This document shows positions 1-11,797 of a stretch of DNA of 12,536 nt, piece after piece (position 1 is the first letter of the stretch; each line of letters starts with the position of its first letter). The translations under genes were made by a program, and so were the position numbers. Source of the stretch: a virus. Below the pieces are notes generated by a model. The model was not told the DNA's origin. It saw only the letters and a program-made list of their open reading frames with translations, and did not search any database. The DNA lies in the UHGV virus genome UHGV-1658101. One strand, given 5' to 3'.

Positions 1-41
1 TGAAGTCGCAAAAATCGGGGTCAAAAAGCACATCTGTTACA

Positions 42-596
42 TCAAGAGTCGGCATTTTTATCCCTCACAACATGGGTAATGGCTCTGCGATATTGCCCGG
101 TGTCGATTAGCGGTTTCACCAGATCGGTTCCGGGGGACTCGCCAGCAGCGCGTCGGGCAAGCTCCGCTTTCGCCCCTTTACGCCCTCGACGCGCGCGGGC
201 TTCAACGGTGCTATCAGCAAGCGGTGTAAAGCCGGTAATAGTCATGTAACGCCTGACGCCATTAGCGGCCAGCGTTCCGGCACGGTTGAGCGCTCTTTCC
301 GCACCCGCCGCATTACCATCAAGCGCAGCCTGCGCCGCTGCTTTGAGCTGCGGCACTGTCTGTTCTTCTACCGATTTAACGCCGGGGACCAGGTGAGGTC
401 GTGGCGGGATGTTTTGCGCCGGTGAGCCGTATTCGTTGAGGTAACCGATCCCGGCATTACCAAACGGAACATCCTCACGCTCGCTGTCTGCTTCCGGGAT
501 ACCCACCAGCACTTCTTTTTTACTGATGGATTTGAGCGCATCCAGAATGGCCTGAGCGTTATCCACCCTCGTTGTTACACCGCTTTTGAAGCTCAT
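42..596 (-). CDS. Phage virion structural protein, function unassigned (possibly head completion or neck)
   Basis: 184-aa ORF with ATG at 596-594 overlapping the upstream stop as ATGA; Ala/Arg-rich; sits at the distal end of the head gene block. Product inferred from position only. Confidence 0.5.
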
Positions 597-1000
597 AGCT
601 GGCGACCGCCTGCGCCAAACATCGTGATCAACTGATAAAATTCAGCGCCATATCGGGTGTTATTCCAGAAACCTGCATCAGGATTCAGCGTCGCGCTGGT
701 GTCATAGCTGACGCTTACCTTATCCACGGACTTTGAGGACTGAACACCATTGGTTGAACCGCCCGGCCCGCCAGCCAGCATCGCCCGGCTGTCTGCCGCC
801 CAGAGCGTCATGTAGTGTGCAACGAACAATCCGGCAAAGTACGGAAACAACTTTTTGCCGGTGACGTTTTCGCTCAGCAGTTCATCGGCCAGATTCAGAC
901 GAAACTGGATTTGCGCTTCGGGATATTTGGCAGGGTCAGCAAACTGCGGGAAGTCGCGGCGAAAATCACTTACCGCTGGCAGACTTTGATTCTTTGGCAT
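593..1000 (-). CDS. Small phage head-tail structural protein (DUF4054-like by position and size)
   Basis: 135-aa ORF; ATG at 1000 preceded by GAGGT about 6 nt upstream; lies two genes downstream of the major capsid gene as in Mu-F/DUF2184-type head modules. Confidence 0.55.
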
Positions 1001-1187
1001 TTTTTACCTCGTTACGCGCGTCAGTGGCTTTGCCAACGGATACTTCCGCGTGCGCACGAGTGAACCAGTGCGTGGCAACGTCTTCCTCCACTGCATGACG
1101 GCCTTTAACAAACTCGCGCCGAGAACCGTCGGGAAGCGTGAGCACAAACGGGGTATGTACGTGTATTACTGCATTATTTTTTGCCAT
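966..1187 (-). CDS. Small hypothetical phage protein
   Basis: 73-aa ORF; ATG at 1187 preceded by AAGGA; overlaps the next gene by 35 nt; begins 42 nt after the capsid gene stop. Confidence 0.45.
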
Positions 1188-1202
1188 CGGGTCATCCTTA
1201 AT

Positions 1203-1219
1203 GGCCCCGCAAGGGGGCC
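1203..1219 (-). other. GC-rich stem-loop immediately downstream of the major capsid gene
   Basis: Minus strand GGCCCC-CTTGC-GGGGCC (6-bp G/C stem, 5-nt loop) between the capsid stop at 1229 and the next RBS; no U-tract, so not a classical intrinsic terminator. Confidence 0.35.
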
Positions 1220-1228
1220 ATATGGCTG

Positions 1229-2170
1229 TTAAATGCCATCAACGTACGAAATGGTTTCTTTGTACACTGGCTCGACTGCACCCAGCTTGCCGTAGTAAGT
1301 GACGATCTGATACAGACCGCGATACTGCACCGGCACACTCTGAAGCGGAACCAGCGGGTAGCGGACGTATTTTTTATCGTTGGTGTACGCAACCATGCGA
1401 TCCTTATTCCCCACACCACGGCCTTTCAGCCATTTAACCGCGCGGATATTCAGCGGAATACCGTTCTGGTGATAGCTGATGGTGTTGGTCTGAAGGTACG
1501 TCAACAGGGACTGGTTACCAGCAGATGAAACGATGATGCTGGACAACAGAGCAAACTGCTCAGGTGGGATCAGCAAATCACTCGGAACCACAGAGTAACC
1601 GGAAGCGGCCCACGCATCAGACAGCACCTGGTTAATGCTTGCGCGGATTTCGTCCGGTGTTGAGGTTGCCCACGTTTTGGCAGCGTTGTTGACAGGAACA
1701 CCGTTCAGGGTAACAAGGCCTTTCAGGTTTAATGCGGAATCGCCAACATACACCTGTTCATCGTTATCCATCTGCCATTTCAGTTGCATCCCGTCATACT
1801 TCTGCGTATCAATCGGGCGTCCGACCTGCTGAGCAGCCTGCAATTCTATGACCGTCCAGCCAAGTTCCATCCCCCACAGGTTCAGCGGGTTACCGGATTT
1901 GCCGATATCCACGTTTACGCCAGCAATAGCAGTTGAGTCTTTGCCTACCCAGTTTTTGCCATTCGGATTTGCACCAGTACCCGCAGCGGCGAAGCTGGTA
2001 TTCGTCCAGCTGGAAATGTCATCTGCGATAGAGACATCTTCACGCAGTTGGATATCGCGGGTCCAGGTGTACCCCACCAGTGGCAGGTTCAGCGTCTGGT
2101 CTAGTCGTTCCAGCTCCCCGATGAGAAAGGCACCAGAGCTGTCAACGGTTGCCTGATCAAAAGTAATCAT
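1229..2170 (-). CDS. Major capsid protein (HK97-fold, DUF2184-like)
   Basis: 313-aa ORF; ATG at 2170 with AAGGA RBS; size and position after the scaffold/protease and decoration-like genes fit a major head subunit. Confidence 0.7.
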   Translation of the reverse strand: MITFDQATVDSSGAFLIGELERLDQTLNLPLVGYTWTRDIQLREDVSIADDISSWTNTSFAAAGTGANPNGKNWVGKDSTAIAGVNVDIGKSGNPLNLWGMELGWTVIELQAAQQVGRPIDTQKYDGMQLKWQMDNDEQVYVGDSALNLKGLVTLNGVPVNNAAKTWATSTPDEIRASINQVLSDAWAASGYSVVPSDLLIPPEQFALLSSIIVSSAGNQSLLTYLQTNTISYHQNGIPLNIRAVKWLKGRGVGNKDRMVAYTNDKKYVRYPLVPLQSVPVQYRGLYQIVTYYGKLGAVEPVYKETISYVDGI

Positions 2171-2181
2171 TCGTCTGTTCC

Positions 2182-2688
2182 TTAAATCTTCCAGGAAATT
2201 TCTGCATTGCCGTCAGCATCACCGGCACCTGTGAATTCAGCGTTGGTCAGCACCACATTTTTGCCACTGACTGACGTGGACATGAATCCACCCAGCGGCA
2301 CTTTGATGGATTCATCAGTGGAGACGACAACGTATACCGGGTCGCCTTTTTTGATGGTGCTGGCATCAAAATCAGAACCGAGATTAACGGTCACGTAGCC
2401 ACGCTTCATGGCGTCGCCAGGGAAGTTCTTGCCACTCCCCACCTGGCGAACCATGTCCGGCTGCGAAGTGGTCGGATAAGGGCGCACATAGATCCCCTTC
2501 ACCTTGTCTGCGGTATCACCATCTGCCAGCGGCACGAAAAAACCGTCATCATCGTATTTACCAGCCAGCCCATAGGCAGCAAAGGCGTTATCGGATTTAA
2601 GGACCACCGGTTCGACGGTTAAGTCCTGCGGACGAGAGACAGCCCCGGCAATGCCAACAGGCATCCGGTACAGAAATACATTATTCAT
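2182..2688 (-). CDS. Putative capsid decoration or auxiliary head structural protein
   Basis: 168-aa ORF; ATG at 2688 with AAGGG RBS; Gly/Val/Asp-rich and beta-strand-like; lies between the scaffold-like gene and the capsid gene. Confidence 0.5.
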   Translation of the reverse strand: MNNVFLYRMPVGIAGAVSRPQDLTVEPVVLKSDNAFAAYGLAGKYDDDGFFVPLADGDTADKVKGIYVRPYPTTSQPDMVRQVGSGKNFPGDAMKRGYVTVNLGSDFDASTIKKGDPVYVVVSTDESIKVPLGGFMSTSVSGKNVVLTNAEFTGAGDADGNAEISWKI

Positions 2689-2691
2689 TTT

Positions 2692-3912
2692 TTACCCTTT
2701 ACGGTTTGCCCAGAATTCAGCGTTTTGTTTGTTCAGGGAAGCGATACTGGTCATGCCCATATTTGGGCGCTGTGCATCGCCGGTGGTGGCGCGGGTGTTT
2801 CGCCCTTTGGCAATCTCAGACACGGCATTAAACGCCATGTTGACCGATTGTTTCGGTAATTTGCGGATATCCGCATCACCGACGATCTGGCGAACCAGCG
2901 TTTTATCTGCGGAAGCCAGAACCTCGCGTTTGAACGCGGTCGGTTTCATCTTACGGCTCAGATCGATACCCGGAACGATAACTTCGGCACGCCAGGCTGA
3001 GTCACCAGTAATCGTGGTTTCCTCTTCATCGTCCTCGCCGTCACCGGTCGGATTATCGTCAGGCTTATTGTCGTTATCGCCCGTCGCATTTCCTTCCAGC
3101 TTAGCCAGCAGGGCTTTCAGTAATGTTTTGAGGTCATCATCACTGTCGCCGGTTGGACCTCCACCCATCTCTGGTGCTTTGTCCGGTAGTGGTTGCTGCG
3201 GGGACAGGTTGATGTTGAGATTAACGCCCTGCGGCAAATCCCCCTCATCTCCTGTAACCGATGCGGGAGCCGACTCCACCAGTTCGTTCATGGTGTCGGC
3301 ATCTCCTGTCTTGATGGCTGCACGCATGCGGGTCCACCAGTTTTTCTTTTGATTTGCCATTGTGTCTCTGTCTCCAATTGCACAACGATTTCCGGCTCTG
3401 CCTTTAGGGACAAGAGCCACATGGTTTCCGGTAATATCGACCTGCTCGGCTTTACCTGGCTCGGTCTGCTCGTACTCCGCGTCATAGCCACACGACACTT
3501 CACGCAGGCCATCTTCGATAAGCTGAATGGCGCTTTCGTCTTTGACGATAAGGTCAGCCAGCATCAAATCAGACAGCTCACCCGTCCCGCGCCGCACATT
3601 CTGAAGATGCCCGACAGCAAGCTCTTTCCAGTTCTCGGGATTTACCAGCCGCACATTCCCGTTTTCATCTTCAGGATGCAGGATCGTGATGCTCATCCCT
3701 TCGAATGAGGCGAGCGTGGCCGGATGGAATACCTGCTCAGGAGAACGCGTTACGACTATCTCACCGAGCTTGTCTGGTTTGAGGTTTGGCAGATCGGCAG
3801 CGCCGTAGAGCTGCTTACCAGTTCGACCTATCGGCACGTCTTTGCACAGCAGCGAGCCGTCAGCCAGCTGATAGCGGGTTTCCCCCAGCCGGGTATTGAA
3901 AAAATATTTCAT
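2692..3912 (-). CDS. Putative prohead protease/scaffolding protein (DUF2213-like)
   Basis: 406-aa ORF; ATG at 3912; N-terminal globular domain of about 180 aa, a strongly acidic Gly/Asp/Glu linker (DSDDDL...GDGEDDEEETT) and a helical Lys/Ala-rich C-terminus, matching Mu gpI-type protease-scaffold architecture. Confidence 0.6.
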   Translation of the reverse strand: MKYFFNTRLGETRYQLADGSLLCKDVPIGRTGKQLYGAADLPNLKPDKLGEIVVTRSPEQVFHPATLASFEGMSITILHPEDENGNVRLVNPENWKELAVGHLQNVRRGTGELSDLMLADLIVKDESAIQLIEDGLREVSCGYDAEYEQTEPGKAEQVDITGNHVALVPKGRAGNRCAIGDRDTMANQKKNWWTRMRAAIKTGDADTMNELVESAPASVTGDEGDLPQGVNLNINLSPQQPLPDKAPEMGGGPTGDSDDDLKTLLKALLAKLEGNATGDNDNKPDDNPTGDGEDDEEETTITGDSAWRAEVIVPGIDLSRKMKPTAFKREVLASADKTLVRQIVGDADIRKLPKQSVNMAFNAVSEIAKGRNTRATTGDAQRPNMGMTSIASLNKQNAEFWANRKG

Positions 3913-3926
3913 GTGTTACCTGCGAT

Positions 3927-4700
3927 TCAGGCGGGATAAGAATGGGAGGTGGGAAAAACGATTTCTTTATAACAGCGACAATTCGGGAGCTCGCCAGCGT
4001 GACCGGTCATGCCATCAAGCGTTGGAGGTTTGCCCCATTCGACAAACTTACCTTCCATCTCCCGATGAGAATGCCGGACGTCGCCATCTTCGGCTGTTCG
4101 CCAGATATAACCATTCGAGCCGATTGACAGCGCACGCGCCTGATCCAGCGCGCCGGTTGCACGTCCAAGCTCGGTACGGGCGATAAGGTTCGCTCGTGAG
4201 CGTGACACGTCACCGGACGCAGCTATCTCTTTCGCGAATGGCTCAGCGCGGCCACCAGTCACAACAGCCTCGATGGCTTTGTTCTGAATGTCATATACCC
4301 GATCGGCGGCCTCAAGAGGCAGCGATTTGATGTACTTAATTTGCTCGATCACGATGGATTTCATCACCTGGCCTACCGGGGCGCGGTCGACCATGTTGCG
4401 CAGCTCTGCGCTGATGTTCCGGCTGTGCTGACGCCACTGCTTTTCATTCTGGCGTGCAATGTCGGCGGTAAAGTTCTCAGCAACCTTCGTCGCCCAGGGG
4501 GTGATGATTTCGCTGTAGCGCTCCAGCGCATCCATTATTTCGGTGACACTGTCATTTGAACCATCGTAGCGACCATTTACGATATCCCCGACCGCCCGCG
4601 CTATCTGCCGTAGGCTCGTTCGATATCGGATTTCCGCCTGGCGACTCTGGCGGTTTGTCGCCAAGTTCGCCGATGCCTGGCGGCGCTTCGTCTTCGGCAT
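3927..4700 (-). CDS. Head morphogenesis protein (Mu F / SPP1 gp7 family)
   Basis: 257-aa ORF directly downstream of the portal; ATG at 4700 with GAGGA 8 nt upstream; overlaps the portal 3' end by 149 nt. An alternative ATG at 4535 would remove the overlap but lacks an RBS. Confidence 0.7.
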   Translation of the reverse strand: MPKTKRRQASANLATNRQSRQAEIRYRTSLRQIARAVGDIVNGRYDGSNDSVTEIMDALERYSEIITPWATKVAENFTADIARQNEKQWRQHSRNISAELRNMVDRAPVGQVMKSIVIEQIKYIKSLPLEAADRVYDIQNKAIEAVVTGGRAEPFAKEIAASGDVSRSRANLIARTELGRATGALDQARALSIGSNGYIWRTAEDGDVRHSHREMEGKFVEWGKPPTLDGMTGHAGELPNCRCYKEIVFPTSHSYPA

Positions 4701-6018
4701 TCTCTATGTCCTCGTCGGTAATGGATGCCCCGATGCCGGTTACGTCAGAATTTTCGCGCAAATCGGTCATAGCGGCTTTCAGTGTCATCAGACCATCACC
4801 CAGCGCCGTACTGATTGCGTTGGTGGTGTTTAACGCCACCGTTGAGCGATCGACATCAGACATTTGCCAGAGCGGGTTAAACTCAAACGTGAAATCGTCC
4901 GGCAGCGGCTTGCCAAGTTCCGAACGATGCATGATGTCCAGTATCCGACGCACCGGAAGACGTAAACGTCTCTCCTGCAGCGAGCTTACCCGATCGTAAT
5001 AGTTGGCAAGGTCTGCATCACCGGTAGAAAATCCCTTCGGGGACTGTCCGAACAACCGCACCAGTGGGATACCAACAGCGCCACTAATCTGTTCTGCAAA
5101 CTGCGAAAGGATGTCATCCAGACCACTGAAGCTGTACTGATGGGTTTCAAACTTATCCCGCGAGTCCATGAGCGTCATGCCTTCATTACTCTGGAACTGT
5201 CGAATCAGGTCGATATTCTTCAGCAACGCTTCATACGCAGGACCACCAAGTGCGATAAGCTCACGTAGCTTCTCCACGCTGTAGGTACGCAAATGCGCTT
5301 TGTAGACCAGCTGCGCCGCGCCGACAGTGGCGCTGTCGAACGCAGTAAGCCGATCCCAGATACGCTCTACAACCGACATTCCCCATTCGTTTTCGGTCAT
5401 CTTCTGCTGGAATGGCAGCGTCACCCCGTCGAAGCGAATCAGGCGGCTGTGATGGATGCGCCAGGCCGGGATGCCCGTTGCAGTGGTCACCACGTCGTAA
5501 AACTCAGGTTTACCCAGGTCCGGCCCCATCTCTTTAATGCGGCGGGTCAGCACAGGGTTAATCATCCAGCGGTCGAGCGGGAGAATGCCCTTAAACTTGC
5601 CTTCTCCAATGGTTTCGAGCCGCAACGGGGTCATTGGTGCCTGCCCCTCAATCATGATGAAGCCAACCGCGCCGCCGTAGAGACGCGACCATTTCATCAC
5701 GTCGTTCAGCGCATCCCAGATCTGCAACTCATCCAGCTGCGCTTCCAGGGTGCCACGGTCTTTGGCGTCAATCTCCGAAGTGATGCGAATGCCTTTCCGG
5801 GTCATATCGTCCGGGATAGCGTCGACCGCTTCGCCGATGATCCAGGACGAACGATAGGACCATTCCACCAGCATGCGGTTGCGGCTGGTGAAGTTAGCCC
5901 GGTAGGTCGATGCTGAGTGCTGGTTAGGTGTCTGCATCCCTACGCGGGCGATAAAATTCTCATAACCATCAGCTGTGGCCTGCGCAGTTCGCCGCAGGGC
6001 TTGTTTGTTTCGTGCCAT
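4552..6018 (-). CDS. Phage portal protein
   Basis: 488-aa ORF immediately after the large terminase (TGATG start/stop overlap at 6018); size and position typical of a portal; low-complexity Gly/Pro/Glu C-terminal tail. Confidence 0.8.
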   Translation of the reverse strand: MARNKQALRRTAQATADGYENFIARVGMQTPNQHSASTYRANFTSRNRMLVEWSYRSSWIIGEAVDAIPDDMTRKGIRITSEIDAKDRGTLEAQLDELQIWDALNDVMKWSRLYGGAVGFIMIEGQAPMTPLRLETIGEGKFKGILPLDRWMINPVLTRRIKEMGPDLGKPEFYDVVTTATGIPAWRIHHSRLIRFDGVTLPFQQKMTENEWGMSVVERIWDRLTAFDSATVGAAQLVYKAHLRTYSVEKLRELIALGGPAYEALLKNIDLIRQFQSNEGMTLMDSRDKFETHQYSFSGLDDILSQFAEQISGAVGIPLVRLFGQSPKGFSTGDADLANYYDRVSSLQERRLRLPVRRILDIMHRSELGKPLPDDFTFEFNPLWQMSDVDRSTVALNTTNAISTALGDGLMTLKAAMTDLRENSDVTGIGASITDEDIENAEDEAPPGIGELGDKPPESPGGNPISNEPTADSAGGRGYRKWSLRWFK

Positions 6019-7640
6019 CAGGCCTGTCTCCCTAGCAACTCCCAGATGTTCAGGGCTGAATTCATTGGGGCATAGTTGATCATCACCGAGTCGGCAAGAT
6101 TTGGCGACCGGGTCCCATCAGGCTGTTTATCAATAACGATTTTTCCCACACCATTAATGGAATAGGTCGGCTGCGAAAGCTCGATGATGAGTTTATCTTT
6201 GAGTGCCATGCTACTGCTGATTGAGATGATTTCGTCCGGGTTGTAAGCCATACCTTCAACCACGGCGCGCCAGGTATTCTGAAAAAGTTTACGTAACCGC
6301 CACCAGCTTTGTGCTTTGGCGTTAGCGAAGAAGTCCTTGTTCAGACGTGCGGCTTGCCCGTTGTCCCCGCGAACAGCTTCATCATCCGGATCAAATACCG
6401 CGCCACTACCTCGAAACGGTGTGGCGAGTATTGACGGTCGACGCGCAGCGTTACGCAGTTCGTTGATAGCGCGTGCATCGCCGCGAACGCCAGCGCCCAG
6501 CCCGTCCTCGTCAAAGCGAAACTCTTCGAGGTTATCCTGTTCGCAAAAGCCGAAAACCTTCTCGACGGACTGATAAATGTCGCTGCCCACACCGGACCAT
6601 TCCCGCACATTTTCCAGGAGGAAGCCATGACGGGTGGAAAAGGCATTTTTGTCCCTGCCTTCGTCGGCGACATCCATCGCGCCAAGTCGTTTGCCTGTTG
6701 GCTGGATACCCAGTTTGATATGCGCATCAACGGCAGCCTGTACCCATTCGGATGGAATCAGGACGCCTTCCGCTGATGCGCTGTAGTTCAGATCAAGTTC
6801 CTGTGCCACCACCACCGGATTATCGATTTTCTCGCATTCCCTGCGATACCACTCTTCATCCTTGCGAGGATCATCCCGCCAGTGGAATGTGAATACCGGT
6901 ATCTTCCCGCCATGACGCTTCTGAGCGAACGGGTTCGCCATGCCGTTAACTGAACTCAGGTCGATACGGCAACGCGTCGTTTGTGACAACGCCGCATCAA
7001 TCAGCAGAGGACGCTGAAGGAATGCAGCCTCATCAACCAGATAAAGCGTGGTACGGTCACCACGACCAATATTATCGCCAGCCTCGCCTTTGATAACGGC
7101 ACCAGTTTCAGGAAACTCAACACGCATATATGGCGCGTGCTTCTTCTCGCTCCACGAACCGCGAAACTCTACAGGCAGTGTTTCCACGAACTTGCGCGCC
7201 TTCCAGAACAATGCTTTCGGGTCACCGGTGCTGTCGACGTATTCCTCTTTACGGGAGCCGAAACCGATAACCATTTCTTTGTTGAAGAGACAAAGCGAGC
7301 AGGCCAGTCCGATCGCGGTCCAACTGAGCCCCATTTCACGGGATTTTTCGGTAATACCATTCTCCCGATTGCCCCAGCGTTCCATAATCCAGTGGATCCA
7401 CTCCTCCTGCTTAGGGAAGAGTAAAAACGGAATGGTCACCGGCAGGCCATAATCAATATTACGCGGGTCCGTTGTCATGCCCCAGTCGATGATGAACTGA
7501 GCCGGGTTGGTTCGGTAAAACTGTTTTAGTGCTGGCAATATTTCAGGGTTCTGGCGAATGCGCTGTAGGCGTTCCATCCGCCATTCAAAAACCATCTGGT
7601 AATCAGGATGTTTAAAATCGAAGGGAAATGGTAACGGCAT
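6018..7640 (-). CDS. Terminase large subunit
   Basis: 540-aa ORF; candidate P-loop [11 protein letters not shown], Walker [13 protein letters not shown]-terminal acidic nuclease-like region ([10 protein letters not shown]); follows the small subunit with a 2-nt gap. Confidence 0.9.
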
Positions 7641-7642
7641 AC

Positions 7643-8197
7643 TTAGCCCATCATTTTTTTATACGCTTCTGCAGCCTGCTCCGGCGTTAAGTTGGTAATT
7701 TCTGTTCTGACTGGGCCTCCATCAGCGCCAGTCACTTCATTTTTGACGTTGTCTTTAAACGCCTGAACAGAAACATGACGCCCAAGCAACTCAAGGTTTT
7801 TAACCTTATCAGGCCATTTGATTTTCTTCAGAAGTGCGGCGCTATCTGCTGATGCCATCTCGACGACATCCATTCCTGATAGCGTTGTACGCCACACCTT
7901 AGGCCAGTCTTTAATCGGCTTCAGTTCGCCATTGGCAAGCAGGATATCCAGCACGTCCATCTGATCGATTTCAGTCAGCCGTCGCAATACATAGGCAGCG
8001 TCTATACCTACCTCTTCATTGCGTTCAGCCTTTAGCTCAGCAATGCGATCTGCTATGTCAGGTTTTGACAGGTTCTCGCTACCAGTGGCGCGAGCAGTTT
8101 TCTCGCTGTAACCCGCCCTGATAGCTGCCTGAGTGGCGTTTAAATCTTTTAAATATTCCCGGCAGAACAGTTCCTGCTTAGGTGTGAGCTGTTTCAA
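7643..8197 (-). CDS. Terminase small subunit (P27 family), probable TTG start
   Basis: Conserved N-terminus [28 protein letters not shown]. The ORF-track start at 8248 is a TTG inside the HNH gene; an in-frame TTG at 8197 with GGGGG 6 nt upstream sits 1 nt after the HNH stop and gives MKQLTPKQ..., with no in-frame ATG nearby. Confidence 0.75.
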
Positions 8198-8198
8198 A

Positions 8199-8696
8199 TC
8201 ACACCCCCGAAACGTTGCTCCAATTTCTATGATTAACGATGTCAGCAATCATGGTAGTGGATACGCCATATCTCTTTGCTAAAGACCTAAGCCCATTACC
8301 TACACTCCCGCGCACATACTCGCGGCGAATGCAGATGACATCGCACTCTTTTAATTTCGCCATTCCGTTCTTTTCACCTGAACGGTCAGGGTATGAGTTT
8401 CTGCCTCGCCTTGACCTGTCACGATTATTGTCAGCGACAGTACCTATAATCAGATGGTCAGGATTCACGCATGATGGATTATCGCATTTATGCCTAACAA
8501 CCAGGTCCTTGATGCTATCTAGCGAAATTCCGTTAGCTTCGCAGTATGCGATTCGATGTGCGTAGTGCGGCTTTCGTGAAATGTGCTTCTGCCCATACCC
8601 TCGCTTATTTATGTAGCCGGTATAAATCACACACTCTCCGACATACACATCATCCGGATGGGAAAACAGCTCTTGTTTGTCTGTGAGCTTTGCCAT
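8199..8696 (-). CDS. HNH homing-type endonuclease, terminase-associated
   Basis: 165-aa ORF; ATG at 8696 with GGAG RBS; motif HKCDNPSCVNPDHLIIGTVADNNRDR (HNH_3-like) and N-terminal YTGYINKRGYG...HYAHRIAY; immediately upstream of TerS. Confidence 0.85.
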   Translation of the reverse strand: MAKLTDKQELFSHPDDVYVGECVIYTGYINKRGYGQKHISRKPHYAHRIAYCEANGISLDSIKDLVVRHKCDNPSCVNPDHLIIGTVADNNRDRSRRGRNSYPDRSGEKNGMAKLKECDVICIRREYVRGSVGNGLRSLAKRYGVSTTMIADIVNHRNWSNVSGV

Positions 8697-8720
8697 TGTT
8701 GGCTCCGTTTATCCGTTAAA

Positions 8721-8742
8721 AGGGATATCAGTTAAGTTATCC
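8721..8742 (-). other. Weak hairpin upstream of the HNH gene
   Basis: GGGATA-N10-TATCCC inverted repeat followed on the minus strand by TTTTAACGG; AT-rich stem, so weak as a terminator. Confidence 0.2.
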
Positions 8743-9050
8743 CGTGTAGGGTATAAGCCATTGTCGAGACCACTCATTGAATGGCCTCTGCAATAACCGA
8801 TGTCTTTCCATCAGTCCGCCACCACAAAGAATCTTTTTTGCCATAAGGCTGGAGGTTCATCTTTCAGTGGCTGCCAGTGTTATTTCCCCACTTACTGGCT
8901 TGGGTTGTTTCGCTGTACTGCCGTTAACTGGTGGCGCACAGATTTAGTTAAATCCGTTCTCGCATGATCCAGCTTTTACATACCTGGATTGTGAGGGATG
9001 TAAATCACGGTTTCATTATCAAGCCCACCAGTAGATGGGCTTTGGAATGG

Positions 9051-9569
9051 TCACTTTGGCAGTCCGGGGATCGATATTTGCGCCTGCTGCTCAATCCTTT
9101 CGATTCTTGCTATGAGTTGAGGTTTTTTGATCCTGCCCCAGCGGTTCAGCAAGCGTCCTGACATACTGGCAACATCCTTTTCCTTCATGAACTCCAGCAT
9201 TAACTCGTTGTGCTCTCTTTGGTATGAGTGAGCCACCTCCATCAGCCTGTCACGCATCCAATTAAATGCTCTGATAAACGCCTCTTTGATGGCGGCAGCT
9301 TTTTTGCCGGTAAACGACATGATGATGTACATCGCACCGTCTTTGGAAATTTCATATTCAACATACTGATTACCCTTGTGTTCATAGGTAACCCGCGAAA
9401 AGTTGCTGGTTAGAAATTCATCCGAACAGTCTAGCTTTTCGATTTTCTGAATGATGTGGTGATGCTGCTTGTCGAAGTAAGCTGCTACCTTGCGGGAGGT
9501 TGTGATCACGCGATCACCAGAAACAACCACCATGTCCCGGAAATCGAGATTAGCCAATTGATGATTCAT
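9051..9569 (-). CDS. rha: Rha-family phage regulatory protein
   Basis: Sequence from MNHQLANLDFRDMVVVSGDRVITTSRKVAAYFDKQHHHIIQKIEKL...YIIMSFTGKKAAAIKEAFIRAFNWM matches the Phage_pRha pattern; ATG at 9569 with AAGG RBS. The track's 253-aa ORF starts at a TTG at 9812 and its extra 81 residues run across an intrinsic terminator, so I treat them as non-coding. Confidence 0.8.
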   Translation of the reverse strand: MNHQLANLDFRDMVVVSGDRVITTSRKVAAYFDKQHHHIIQKIEKLDCSDEFLTSNFSRVTYEHKGNQYVEYEISKDGAMYIIMSFTGKKAAAIKEAFIRAFNWMRDRLMEVAHSYQREHNELMLEFMKEKDVASMSGRLLNRWGRIKKPQLIARIERIEQQAQISIPGLPK

Positions 9570-9611
9570 AGCGTCTTTACCTTTTAGAAAGTGAGCCTGT
9601 CTCACAGAAAA

Positions 9612-9640
9612 GCCGCCCGAGAGAGGTCGCCACCTATAAC
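9612..9640 (-). other. Lambda cosN-like motif (candidate cohesive-end site)
   Basis: Minus strand GTTATAGGTGGCGACCTCTCTCGGGCGGCTTTTC resembles lambda cos (GTTACGGGGCGGCGACCTCGCGGGTTTTCGC, quoted from memory): shared GGCGACCTC, CGGG and TTTTC, at the equivalent position downstream of Rz. Confidence 0.3.
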
Positions 9641-9705
9641 GGCATTTCTCAGGCTCGCTTACTGAAAGGCTCTCGTTAATATGCGCGTGAGATGCGCTGT
9701 GAAAT

Positions 9706-9736
9706 TCAGATATAAAAAGCCCCGCGAATGCGAGGC
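9706..9736 (-). terminator. Rho-independent terminator between the lysis cassette and rha
   Basis: Minus-strand RNA GCCUCGC-AUUC-GCGGGGC (7-bp stem with one G-U pair) followed by UUUUUAUAUCUG; 175 nt downstream of the Rz stop. Confidence 0.55.
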
Positions 9737-9911
9737 TAAATCCTGGTATTTGTAATGAACTGGCTCTTATCTCAACGCAGCCCCTTACTGCGCGCCAGAT
9801 GCTCAATATCAAGCATCAGCAATGAGATGTTTAATCTGGATTTACTCCAGAAGTGATCACCACCCTGTCTACAGAGCCAGATGTGAAGGATGATGAGTAA
9901 AATTATCGCTA

Positions 9912-10349
9912 TCATCGAAGGCATTGCGTCCTGATGTATTCCTGCAGGTAGTTAACCTGCGCGGTTATCCTGTCGATTCCACTTCGGAGACGGTAATAAT
10001 TGAGTTCAGCATCTGCTGTAAGTCTTGGGCTTTCTCCATCGCCCATGCTGCTGGCTCCGGTCGTTGACTTTGCACAGGTGGCGGCGACTTGCAGGCGCTT
10101 ACGACCAGCAGAAACATCAGCACGGAGACTTTCGATAGTCGCGTTAGCATCAGCAAGCTCCTTTGTGTATCTGGCGTCGAGTTCTGCTACATCACGTTGA
10201 CGCTTCTGCATGTCAGCGATTGTGGATGTGGCTTTATCTCGCTGCTCTTTGTAGGCGATGGCGTTATCACGGTAATGATTAACAGACCATAACAGGCAGA
10301 CGATGATGCAGATAACCAGAGCGGAGATAATCGCGGTGACTCTGCTCAT
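9912..10349 (-). CDS. Rz: Rz inner-membrane spanin (i-spanin)
   Basis: 145-aa ORF; N-terminal TM segment [16 protein letters not shown] then coiled-coil-like region; N-terminus resembles lambda Rz while the remainder diverges; start overlaps the R stop. Confidence 0.85.
9965..10150 (-). CDS. Rz1: Rz1 outer-membrane lipoprotein spanin (o-spanin), embedded in Rz in the +1 frame
   Basis: ORF wholly inside Rz; first ATG at 10150 (track start 10156 is TTG); signal peptide with lipobox VSAC then Pro-rich mature region ([13 protein letters not shown]). Confidence 0.7.
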
Positions 10350-10822
10350 ACCTCAATCTCTCTGACCGTTCCGCCCGCTTCTTTGAATTTTGCAATCAGG
10401 CTATCAGCCTTATGCTCGAACTGACCATAACCAGCGCCCGGAAGTGAAGCCCAGATATTGCTGCAACGGTCAATTGCCTGACGAATATCACCGCGATCAA
10501 TCATCGGTAAAGCGCCACGTTCTTTAATCTGTTGCAGTGCCACAGCGTCCTGGCTTTTCGGAGAGAAGTCTTTCAGGCCAAGTTGCTTGCGGTAGGCATC
10601 CCACCAACGGGAAAGAAGCTGGTAACGTCCGGCGGCTGTTGATTTGAGTTTTGGGTTTAGCGTGACAAGTTTGCGAGGGTGATCGGAGTAATCAGTGAAT
10701 AGCTCTCCGCCTACAATGACGTCATAACCATGATTTCTGGTTTTCTGACGTCCGTTATCAGTTCCCTCTGACCACGCCAGCATATCGAGGAACGCCTTAC
10801 GTTGATTATTGATTTCCACCAT
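10346..10822 (-). CDS. R: Endolysin R (lambda-type lytic transglycosylase)
   Basis: 158-aa protein [39 protein letters not shown]... is essentially lambda R as recalled; overlaps the S 3' end by 17 nt. Confidence 0.95.
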
Positions 10823-11129: not shown

Positions 11130-11523
11130 GTCTTACCCCCAATAAGGGGATTTGCTCTATTTAATTAGGAATAAGGTCGATTACTGATAGAACAAATCCA
11201 GGCTACTGTGTTTAGTAATCAGATTTGTTCGTGACCGATATGCACGGGCAAAGCGGCATGAGGTTGTTAGCGCAGCCTCTTGCCACCCGCTTTCACGAAG
11301 GTCATGTGTAGAAGGCCGCAGCGTAACTATCACTGATGAATTCAGGATAGCCAGTGGCTACGGCTCAGTTTGGGTTGTGCTGTTGCTGGGCGGCGATGAC
11401 GCCTGTACGCATTTGGTGATCCGGTTCTGCTTCCGGCATTCGCTTAATTCAGCACAACGGAAAGAGCACTCGGTGCATTTAAGACAAGCTCCATAAGGGA
11501 GAATGCTCTTACCTGTTACACAG

Positions 11524-11586
11524 ATATAAAAAATCCCGAAACCGTTATGCAGGCTCTAACTATTGCCTGCGAACTGTTTCGGGATT
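11524..11586 (-). terminator. tR' late-operon terminator (3' end of the 194-nt 6S leader RNA)
   Basis: Minus strand AATCCCGAAAC ... GTTTCGGGATT (11-bp stem, structured loop with GCAGG/CCTGC) then TTTTATATCTG; matches lambda tR' as recalled. Confidence 0.8.
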
Positions 11587-11720
11587 GCATTTTACAGACC
11601 TCTCAGCCTGCGATGGTTGGAGTTCCAGACGATACGTCGAAGTGACCAACTAGGCGGAATCGGTAGTAAGCGCCGCCTCTTTTCATCTCACTACCACAAC
11701 GAGCGAATTAACCCATCGTT

Positions 11721-11755
11721 GGGTCAAATTTACCCAAGTTTATTCAAAAAGTCAA
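11721..11755 (-). promoter_or_regulatory. Late promoter pR' with the Q-utilisation (qut) region
   Basis: Minus strand TTGACT (-35, fwd 11750-11755), 17-bp spacer, TAAATT (-10, fwd 11727-11732), about 29 nt downstream of the Q stop; predicted start near 11720, 194 nt from the tR' U-tract. Confidence 0.75.
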
Positions 11756-11797
11756 TATCATGCCGTTAATATGTTGCCATCCGTGGCAATCATGCTG

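Follow-up and report, generated by a model that had tools for sequence, protein, structure and literature searches.

A conserved structured leader RNA precedes an exchangeable rha gene in the late operon of a mosaic lambdoid prophage

The virus genome UHGV-1658101, analysed here as a single stretch of 12,536 nucleotides (the window, to whose full length all positions refer), carries a rha gene of 172 codons (ATG 9569-9567 to TGA 9053-9051) in the late operon of a mosaic lambdoid prophage. All genes and elements relevant here lie on the minus strand, and their coordinates are therefore given in descending order. We found that rha is preceded by a conserved, pseudoknotted leader RNA of 136 nt (9705-9570), which lies between an intrinsic terminator (9737-9710) and the ATG and in which an outer helix pairs with the Shine-Dalgarno (SD) sequence of the gene. 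Taken together, the evidence makes it probable that rha is an interchangeable cassette of the 'Bro network', a term used for domain-shuffling antirepressor-like proteins (PMC10111431), that is transcribed with the late operon and sits behind a structured, SD-pairing leader. The gene itself adds little, since it is an annotated regulator of the Rha family at a site already known as a hot spot of mosaicism. What is potentially new is the structured leader and, perhaps, a structured linker of 354 nt downstream of the gene; regulation by either is a proposal.

In the leader model, helix P0 (9697-9694 with 9686-9683) is followed by the pseudoknot (PK, 9675-9670 with 9623-9618), the outer helix P1 (9669-9658 with 9591-9580), the inner helices P2 (9656-9650 with 9599-9593), P2b (9649-9646 with 9609-9606) and P3 (9643-9640 with 9615-9612), and the hairpin P4 (9635-9632 with 9627-9624), which has a GGCG loop. 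In the consensus fold obtained with RNAalifold, a long-range helix, GCCUUUCAGnAAG : CUUUCUAAAAGGU, pairs the SD and encloses three further helices and the GGCG-capped hairpin. The SD of rha, AAAGG (9584-9580), is paired in P1 with an upstream CCUUU (9668-9664). The minimum free energy of the leader is -46.9 kcal/mol (z = -2.5), and indels and in-frame stops among relatives indicate that the leader is not coding. In a MAFFT alignment of 55 distinct sequences (A3), 96.7% of the cells pair, compared with 39-53% when the partners are slid, and the covariation score beats that of every shuffle (0 of 500 reach it).

A covariance model built from A3 found divergent homologues beyond the reach of pattern retrieval, and these precede P22 rha, the KilA-N gene of Stx2-1717, HK022 gp73 and the HNH gene of phage Dewey; EPP-1 has one too. 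With the divergent homologues included (A4), double compensatory changes are seen in 24 of the 33 pairs, 99.2% of the cells pair and none of 500 shuffles does as well on any measure, the pairing counts being inflated by the fitting of A4 to the model structure. The pairs of P1 are kept in 98.9-99.2% of cases, with compensatory changes such as U-A to A-U in EPP-1. Single changes are compatible with G-U pairing, and the covariance model scores only 23-26 bits on the reverse strand versus 162 bits; thus, the constraint appears to act on the mRNA strand. The arms of the pseudoknot are complementary in six versions (CGAGAG/CUCUCG, CCCGAG/CUCGGG, CACAGAG/CUCUGUG, CCAAGAA/UUCUUGG, CCAAGAG/CUCUUGG and CACCGA/UCGGUG), as judged by eye and with registers that differ by one column between types. 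The structural feature expected of a translational-control leader, a conserved SD-pairing helix supported by covariation, is therefore present in the aligned sequences; in the P22 type the SD is next to this helix, not in it.

Rfam 15 gave no match at E<=1 in the whole window and, at E<=10, only noise for 9540-9760 (at most 19 bits, compared with gathering scores of 42-90), and our literature searches found no description of this RNA. Between the terminator and the leader core (9697-9683) lies a conserved element that can be read either as a GC hairpin or as the direct repeat CGCGCAU-N4-CGCGCAU. Its homologues have the form GCGCN-loop-NGCGC, with A-U/U-A covariation between two of the related loci (L249 and L246), and the element could be an RNA or a DNA site.

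By every sequence criterion tested, rha itself belongs to a known family. Residues 23-106 of the product match Pfam Phage_pRha (PF09669; positions 9503-9252; E = 1.2e-23) with 83.9 bits against a cut-off of 29.9, and residues 115-168 match the Pfam domain ORF11CD3 (9227-9066; E = 2.6e-23). The protein also matches TIGR02681 (76.4 bits against a cut-off of 45.95) and phrog_518, 'Rha-like transcriptional regulator' (3.5e-79), and is 44% identical over the full length to P22 Rha (ORF201; E = 3e-53); its identity to phi80 Rha is 37% (E = 3e-34). A preliminary description of this locus had assigned the gene to the Rha family, as a known and not a novel system, and had proposed a profile search against Phage_pRha; that search and the homology bear the assignment out. 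Because the gene is Rha-like on all of these counts and is found where the founding rha genes of phi80 and P22 lie, we regard it as already known. Its architecture, an N-terminal Phage_pRha followed by a C-terminal ORF11CD3, is that of the Bro/KilA-N/Rha domain-shuffling network reportedly described by Iyer, Koonin and Aravind in 2002, and other genes that follow this leader fuse the same C-terminal module to KilA-N or to P22_AR_N. In hosts deficient in integration host factor (IHF), Rha blocks both the synthesis of phage DNA and phage growth (PMC4936722; a remark to this effect is also in the phi80 record), and on these published genetics we take the protein encoded here to be a putative DNA-binding regulator with the same effect.

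The placement of the start codon bears directly on the leader. A mechanical open reading frame (ORF) that opens at TTG 9812 (9812-9051, 253 aa) was rejected in favour of ATG 9569 because the P22 and phi80 homologues align from the Met of that ATG. The stretch upstream of the ATG shows 1-nt indels among relatives, and in-frame stops occur there in 36 of 60 distinct relatives. The database starts of P22 rha (ORF201), phi80 rha and the EPP-1 AntA gene fall inside the non-coding leader, 23, 12 and 23 codons too far upstream (L010 1605-1676, L262 1886-1924 and L017 1542-1610, respectively), and the real start in all three is the ATG that follows the Shine-Dalgarno sequence, a point that future annotation of such genes should take into account.

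The preliminary description had also read the layout of the locus, with a terminator upstream and a weak hairpin downstream, as typical of an independently expressed accessory gene, or moron. A typical moron is flanked by a promoter of its own upstream and a terminator of its own downstream. A consensus scan of the minus strand of 8100-10400 found no sigma-70-like site, and the same criteria gave none in 116 distinct related loci over the 260 nt before the ATG; the stretch in which a promoter had been expected (9570-9705) is instead the conserved structured leader. We also dismissed a candidate promoter, TTCACA-16-TATTAA, that was found by hand ahead of the leader core, because it has no -7 T and PSS-04, HK106 and phi80 do not conserve its -35. 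Downstream, a scan of the minus strand of 9700-8100 detected no terminator. The weak hairpin that had been noted there does exist (9042-9021); it lacks a U-tract. Two of the three structural marks of a moron are thus missing, since rha has neither a detectable promoter of its own nor a downstream terminator, and the third, presence or absence at the same position among close relatives, is found.

The terminator that does flank the gene lies on its upstream side. It had been placed at 9706-9736; the element is present, and its position is corrected here to 9737-9710. It has the form AGCCUCGC-AUUC-GCGGGGCU followed by UUUUUAUAU, with a stem (9737-9718) of eight pairs, six of them G-C, and a loop of four, after which comes TTTTATAT. 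It forms the end of the lysis cassette and is always found ahead of the leader. Terminator-like matches in this region are not above chance (two found, 2.1 expected), and we consider the terminator real because it is conserved in position, not because of a single scan match: a T-run is found at the same place in 144 of 147 related loci, after differing self-complementary stems. The records of epsilon34, HK106 and phi80 annotate a terminator there.

Several lines of evidence place rha in the late transcript. The gene is co-oriented with the Q-S-R-Rz late operon, and the rha genes of P22 and phi80 have been described as late-operon genes (PMC4936722). Moreover, a transcriptome screen of strain LF82 found its prophage Gally 'apparently devoid of any moron' (bioRxiv 10.1101/2022.10.28.514194), and the leader-plus-rha segment of Gally is 99.2% identical to that of the window. 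That rha is all the same a true moron, autonomously transcribed from the prophage and of benefit to the lysogen (through interference with superinfecting phages, for instance), as was previously proposed, is unlikely. The presence, absence and replacement of the gene among close relatives fit the comparative definition, the upstream terminator would shield it from read-through that is not antiterminated, and in phage Huey the corresponding slot has genes annotated as anti-CRISPR. However, the missing promoters, in the window region as in the homologous upstream regions, the missing downstream terminator, the Gally transcriptomes and the literature on phi80 and P22 all argue the other way, and the PADLOC defence models give only a marginal match (E = 0.003). 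On this evidence, rha is probably not a moron, i.e., INDEPENDENTLY expressed, and the view of it as independent accessory cargo is probably wrong; behind this leader, the slot it occupies holds one class of protein. The gene would instead have no promoter of its own and would be transcribed in the Q-antiterminated late operon by read-through of the terminator at 9737-9710. For annotation, layout alone appears to be insufficient for calling such genes morons.

Using blastn of 10400-8100 against 15 annotated phage loci, we mapped recurrent breakpoints of homology around the gene. On the flank towards the lysis genes these fall at 9919 (the end of Rz) and at 9737 and 9712 (both sides of the terminator); at rha itself they fall at 9565-9562 (three to seven bases into the gene) and 9056-9049 (the stop codon); and downstream they fall at 9008/8933, 8799/8797 and 8688 (eight bases into the next gene). 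The breakpoints at its two ends, and comparison with more than 20 phages, show that exchange takes in exactly the coding sequence, start and stop codons being its limits, and that the non-coding flanks are kept. The earlier view of rha as a discrete insert between the lysis and packaging genes therefore stands, in the form of one interchangeable cassette between conserved non-coding flanks, as comparison of the relatives indicates. In phi80, for example, a 124-nt leader is 100% identical to that of the window, and the coding sequence diverges right after ATGAAT.

The slot is a recombination hot spot common to P22-like, HK97/HK022-like, phi80-like, Stx and SEN34-like lambdoid phages. KilA-N proteins occupy it in HK620, Stx2-1717 and HK022, and T5orf172/GIY-YIG-like proteins do so in epsilon34 and HK106; there Dewey has an HNH_3 endonuclease together with a regulator, Huey the genes annotated as anti-CRISPR, P22 and phi80 a different Rha, and N7 no annotated gene. 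Judged from these occupants, the slot appears not to be open to arbitrary cargo: behind the leader it takes alternative members of the Bro/KilA-N/Rha 'antirepressor-like' network. Rather than by plain homologous recombination in the conserved flanks, the cassette could move by a homing-like (nuclease-driven) or a site-specific route, with the hairpins of the locus as recognition or cleavage sites, but this is quite unlikely. Nuclease-related genes do occupy the same slot behind the leader in Dewey (HNH_3) and in epsilon34 and HK106 (T5orf172/GIY-YIG-like), an HNH_3 gene adjoins the linker in the window, related hairpin+GAUAAUG elements lie at the cassette ends, with a hybrid copy in Stx2-1717 and Ayreon, and HNH_3 has been proposed as a possible way of mobilising Bro genes (PMC10111431). 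Rha, however, has no nuclease domain, neither target-site duplications nor recombinase genes were seen in the slot, and each breakpoint borders a flank of 40-350 bp with 90-100% identity, which suffices for homologous exchange or exchange mediated by a single-strand annealing protein. Hybrids of Gally formed via short homologies near Rz have been seen experimentally (bioRxiv 10.1101/2022.10.28.514194).

The leader is widespread among enterobacterial elements. With blastn it was found in 152 phage records and in 953 of 5426 complete E. coli genomes (~18%), including Stx phages, and an exact-pattern scan found it on at least 120 IMG/VR contigs. Among 120 matches listed in a scan of species-representative genomes, 18 were true, in Shimwellia, Apirhabdus, Pluralibacter, Rahnella, Rouxiella, Pantoea and Yersinia among others, and about 100 were chance matches in GC-rich genomes that were removed by nhmmer; the scan counts are lower bounds. 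The genes behind the leader encode Rha+ORF11CD3 at a minimum of 74 loci, KilA-N, with or without ORF11CD3 or P63C, at about 19 (a lower bound), T5orf172/MUG113 at 13 or more, a long Rha at four or more and ANT/KilAC at two or more, and P22_AR_N+ORF11CD3, AntA and HNH_3 also occur. Four loci have second copies of the leader (L021, 152-293 and 1518-1660; L148, 3511-3648 and 4838-4976; L022; and L087). The Stx2a phage PV11-77 has a leader followed by P22_AR_N+ORF11CD3 between R and Rz and a second unit of leader and Rha after Rz; two such units in one phage suggest that the leader is tied to a gene class and not to one genomic slot.

That the leader is not a functional RNA, its conservation being due to recent horizontal spread or to a role at the DNA level (as a recombination linker or protein-binding site) and its fold incidental, is very unlikely: the neighbouring lysis genes are also 95-98% identical in many of these phages, two sequence types dominate the alignment and the direct repeat upstream of the core (CGCGCAT-N4-CGCGCAT as DNA) could bind a protein, but 78-100% identity is kept in elements of Hafnia, Yersinia, Edwardsiella, Pantoea, Rahnella, Klebsiella and Salmonella with differing flanking genes, the P22, HK022, Dewey and Stx2-1717 versions keep every helix by double changes, and the single changes are compatible with pairing on the mRNA strand only.

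We propose the following explanation for the arrangement. Q-modified RNA polymerase would read through the terminator into rha, and the leader would then fold so that P1 pairs the SD with the upstream CCUUU, a pairing that has the structural support described above. Its probable function is to limit how much of a potentially harmful regulator is translated, or to make that translation conditional. Release might come from RNase III cleavage of the roughly 23-bp stack formed by P1, P2 and P2b, from a protein or from a ligand; the length of the stack would suit RNase III, and the invariant loop and junction nucleotides, together with the pseudoknot, would suit a specific protein or ligand. A broader proposal, which we offer tentatively and hold to be somewhat short of an even chance, is that the leader represents an undescribed class of pseudoknotted, riboswitch-sized cis-regulatory RNA that gates late-phase translation of Bro-network genes (Rha, KilA-N, P22_AR_N, AntA, ANT, T5orf172 and HNH_3) in enterobacterial lambdoid phages in response to a ligand, protein or RNase III signal. 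Because it lies upstream of the classical phi80 and P22 rha genes, the leader could be a missing link in the 40-year-old Rha/IHF phenotype. It provides a testable handle on late-infection control of antirepressor-like proteins in lambdoid phages and on why Rha turns toxic in IHF-deficient hosts.

Several points weigh against the picture of a late-transcribed rha cassette behind an SD-pairing leader. Leaders of the P22 type have the SD immediately 3' of P1 and not within it, which suggests that SD occlusion may not be a universal function. Most leader sequences were retrieved by the exact pattern GAGAA..GCCG..GGTGGCGACC, so that the pattern bases are invariant by construction, and two types dominate the diversity; the fitting of A4 to the model and the assessment of the pseudoknot by eye, both mentioned above, have to be counted here as well. 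Transcription of rha in the window was judged from its sequence and its relatives alone, and a weak or activator-dependent promoter could lie beyond the reach of a consensus scan. The IHF consensus WATCAANNNNTTR has no match anywhere in the window, a weak negative given how loose the consensus is, and the published link to IHF is thus unexplained here. Finally, DNA binding by Rha is putative, and a single-sequence AlphaFold2 model of the protein had a predicted local distance difference test (pLDDT) score of 48 and was unusable; phmmer against the PDB found no solved structure related to Rha.

The gap after rha, which the preliminary description gave as 354 bp of non-coding DNA, has exactly that length (9050-8697), yet it is not an empty spacer. 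Its minus strand has no ORF of at least 40 aa. More than 200 phage records conserve it at 93-98%, whatever the cargo upstream or the head module downstream, and it folds with -119.2 kcal/mol, compared with -92.1 +/- 5.0 kcal/mol for shuffles (z = -5.4). Hairpin A, AAGCCCAUC-UACU-GGUGGGCUU followed by GAUAAUG, stands directly after the rha stop (9042-9021) and follows the stop codon of the cargo in 47 of 137 related loci. After it come a 70-bp indel identified by phage comparison (9007-8934), an insertion point at 8799/8797 that is used by Sf6 gene 66, by a Huey gene and by 257 bp in Gally, and hairpin B (8787-8765), a diverged second copy of hairpin A that covaries among phages. The two are related hairpin+GA(U/C)AAUG elements that bracket the middle of the gap, and Stx2-1717 and Ayreon have a single hybrid with the stem of A and the tail of B (L014 2497-2540 and L015 1977-2020), as expected from deletion between the two copies. 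A further hairpin, GGGAUA..UAUCCC+UUUU (8743-8718), precedes the SD and ATG of the next gene. We do not regard a micro-ORF at 8775-8707 (equivalent to P22 orf25) as coding, since Gally, Sf6 and Ayreon have CTG or CAG in place of its ATG and what the variation preserves is instead a hairpin. The linker could be a second structured element of the same layer of late-mRNA control. When Gally resides inside macrophages, its rha mRNA is unchanged and the terS, terL and portal mRNAs are down 2-7 fold, which hints at regulated termination or processing within the linker.

The genes around this locus follow the order Q-S-R-Rz/Rz1-(orf50)-terminator-rha-packaging genes on one strand, an order shared with P22 and phi80. 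They comprise the antiterminator Q (12421-11798), a lambda-type holin S (11129-10806), lysozyme R (10822-10346), Rz with embedded Rz1 (10349-9912), the small terminase (8248-7643) and the large terminase (7640-6018), with the portal gene thereafter. A conserved 50-aa ORF (9924-9772; Sf6 gp65 / phrog_11822) overlaps the Rz stop and encodes an N-terminal hydrophobic stretch; the interval originally assigned to the rha insert, 9051-9911, also covers most of it. The segment that holds this ORF (9918-9738) is an independent indel unit, absent from PSS-04, HK106, N7 and Dewey, in which homology breaks off at 9919 and resumes at 9737 or beyond. A search of the window for tRNA and tmRNA genes was negative. 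In the 668-bp stretch between Q and the holin gene (11130-11797) ARAGORN detected no tRNA; a similar PSS-04 prophage and Sf6 have tRNA-Asn and tRNA-Thr there.

The segment from the lysis genes to the gap shares 95-98% identity with P22-like phages, Gally, HK620 and Sf6 among them, and the head module (1-8250) is of the type found in SEN34, Hafnia yong1 and vB_EcoM-606R2, with a Terminase_2 small terminase, a large terminase, a DUF1073 portal, DUF2213 and DUF2184. The two meet in an inter-family mosaic junction at about 8690, where SEN34-type packaging and head genes are joined to a lysis region as in P22-like phages. The HNH_3 / zf-His_Me_endon (homing-endonuclease-like) gene at 8696-8199 has as its start the ATG of the DUF2560 gene (hkbM/orf80) of P22-like phages, and homology to those phages stops 8 nt into it. 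The arrangement rha-gap-HNH-TerS is rare (6 of 5426 complete E. coli genomes), and in phage Dewey a related HNH_3 gene lies behind a homologue of the leader RNA.

The founding Rha genes are reportedly phi80 rha and P22 rha (ORF201), described by Mozola and Friedman in 1985 and by Henthorn and Friedman in 1995. The gene in the window resembles them in its Pfam and TIGR family, in its position directly after Rz/Rz1 and the terminator in the late operon, and in the leader RNA, which is shared in identical form with phi80 and in a compensated, divergent version with P22; P22 Rha also has an ORF11CD3-type C-terminus, with roughly 85% identity. In contrast, the N-terminal Rha domain is just ~30-40% identical to theirs, the C-terminus of phi80 Rha is unrelated to ORF11CD3, and the downstream neighbours differ, being an HNH_3 gene and SEN34-type packaging genes in the window. 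HK620 hkbK, Stx2-1717 gp49 and HK022 gp73 share the terminator-leader-ATG context as well as the downstream hairpin and linker, and HK620 hkbK also has the ORF11CD3 domain, ending in ...IPGLPG where the window Rha ends in ...IPGLPK. Unlike rha, these genes encode an N-terminal KilA-N domain, and the C-terminal domain of HK022 gp73 is P63C.

Morons are said to have been defined for HK97 and HK022 by Juhala et al. in 2000. Those elements, and the P22 'ant moron' (PMC2629481), are like the rha cassette in being extra DNA that varies among relatives, with high flux at one position of the late operon. In contrast to them, rha has no detectable promoter or downstream terminator of its own, runs in the same direction as the late transcript and apparently depends on it. 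Gating of an antirepressor-type gene at the RNA level, around the ribosome-binding site, also occurs in P1/P7 c4-icd-ant, in P22 sar-ant and in P4, where CI/seqA acts in the Bro-network gene eta (PMC10111431). Those regulators are trans-acting or antisense RNAs, whereas the leader described here is predicted to function as a cis-acting, folded 5' leader, and the Rfam models of C4 and isrK do not match it.

A final parallel is with the 'boundary sequences' of lambdoid phages, reportedly described by Clark et al. in 2001 for HK620 and by Casjens et al. in 2004 for Sf6; one of them, bsq7, is present in the Sf6 record. Like the flanks of the rha cassette, these are short conserved sequences at module junctions at which mosaic breakpoints cluster. 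The flanks in the window differ in being longer (~140 and 354 nt) and in having conserved RNA structure, which suggests a function beyond that of providing homology.

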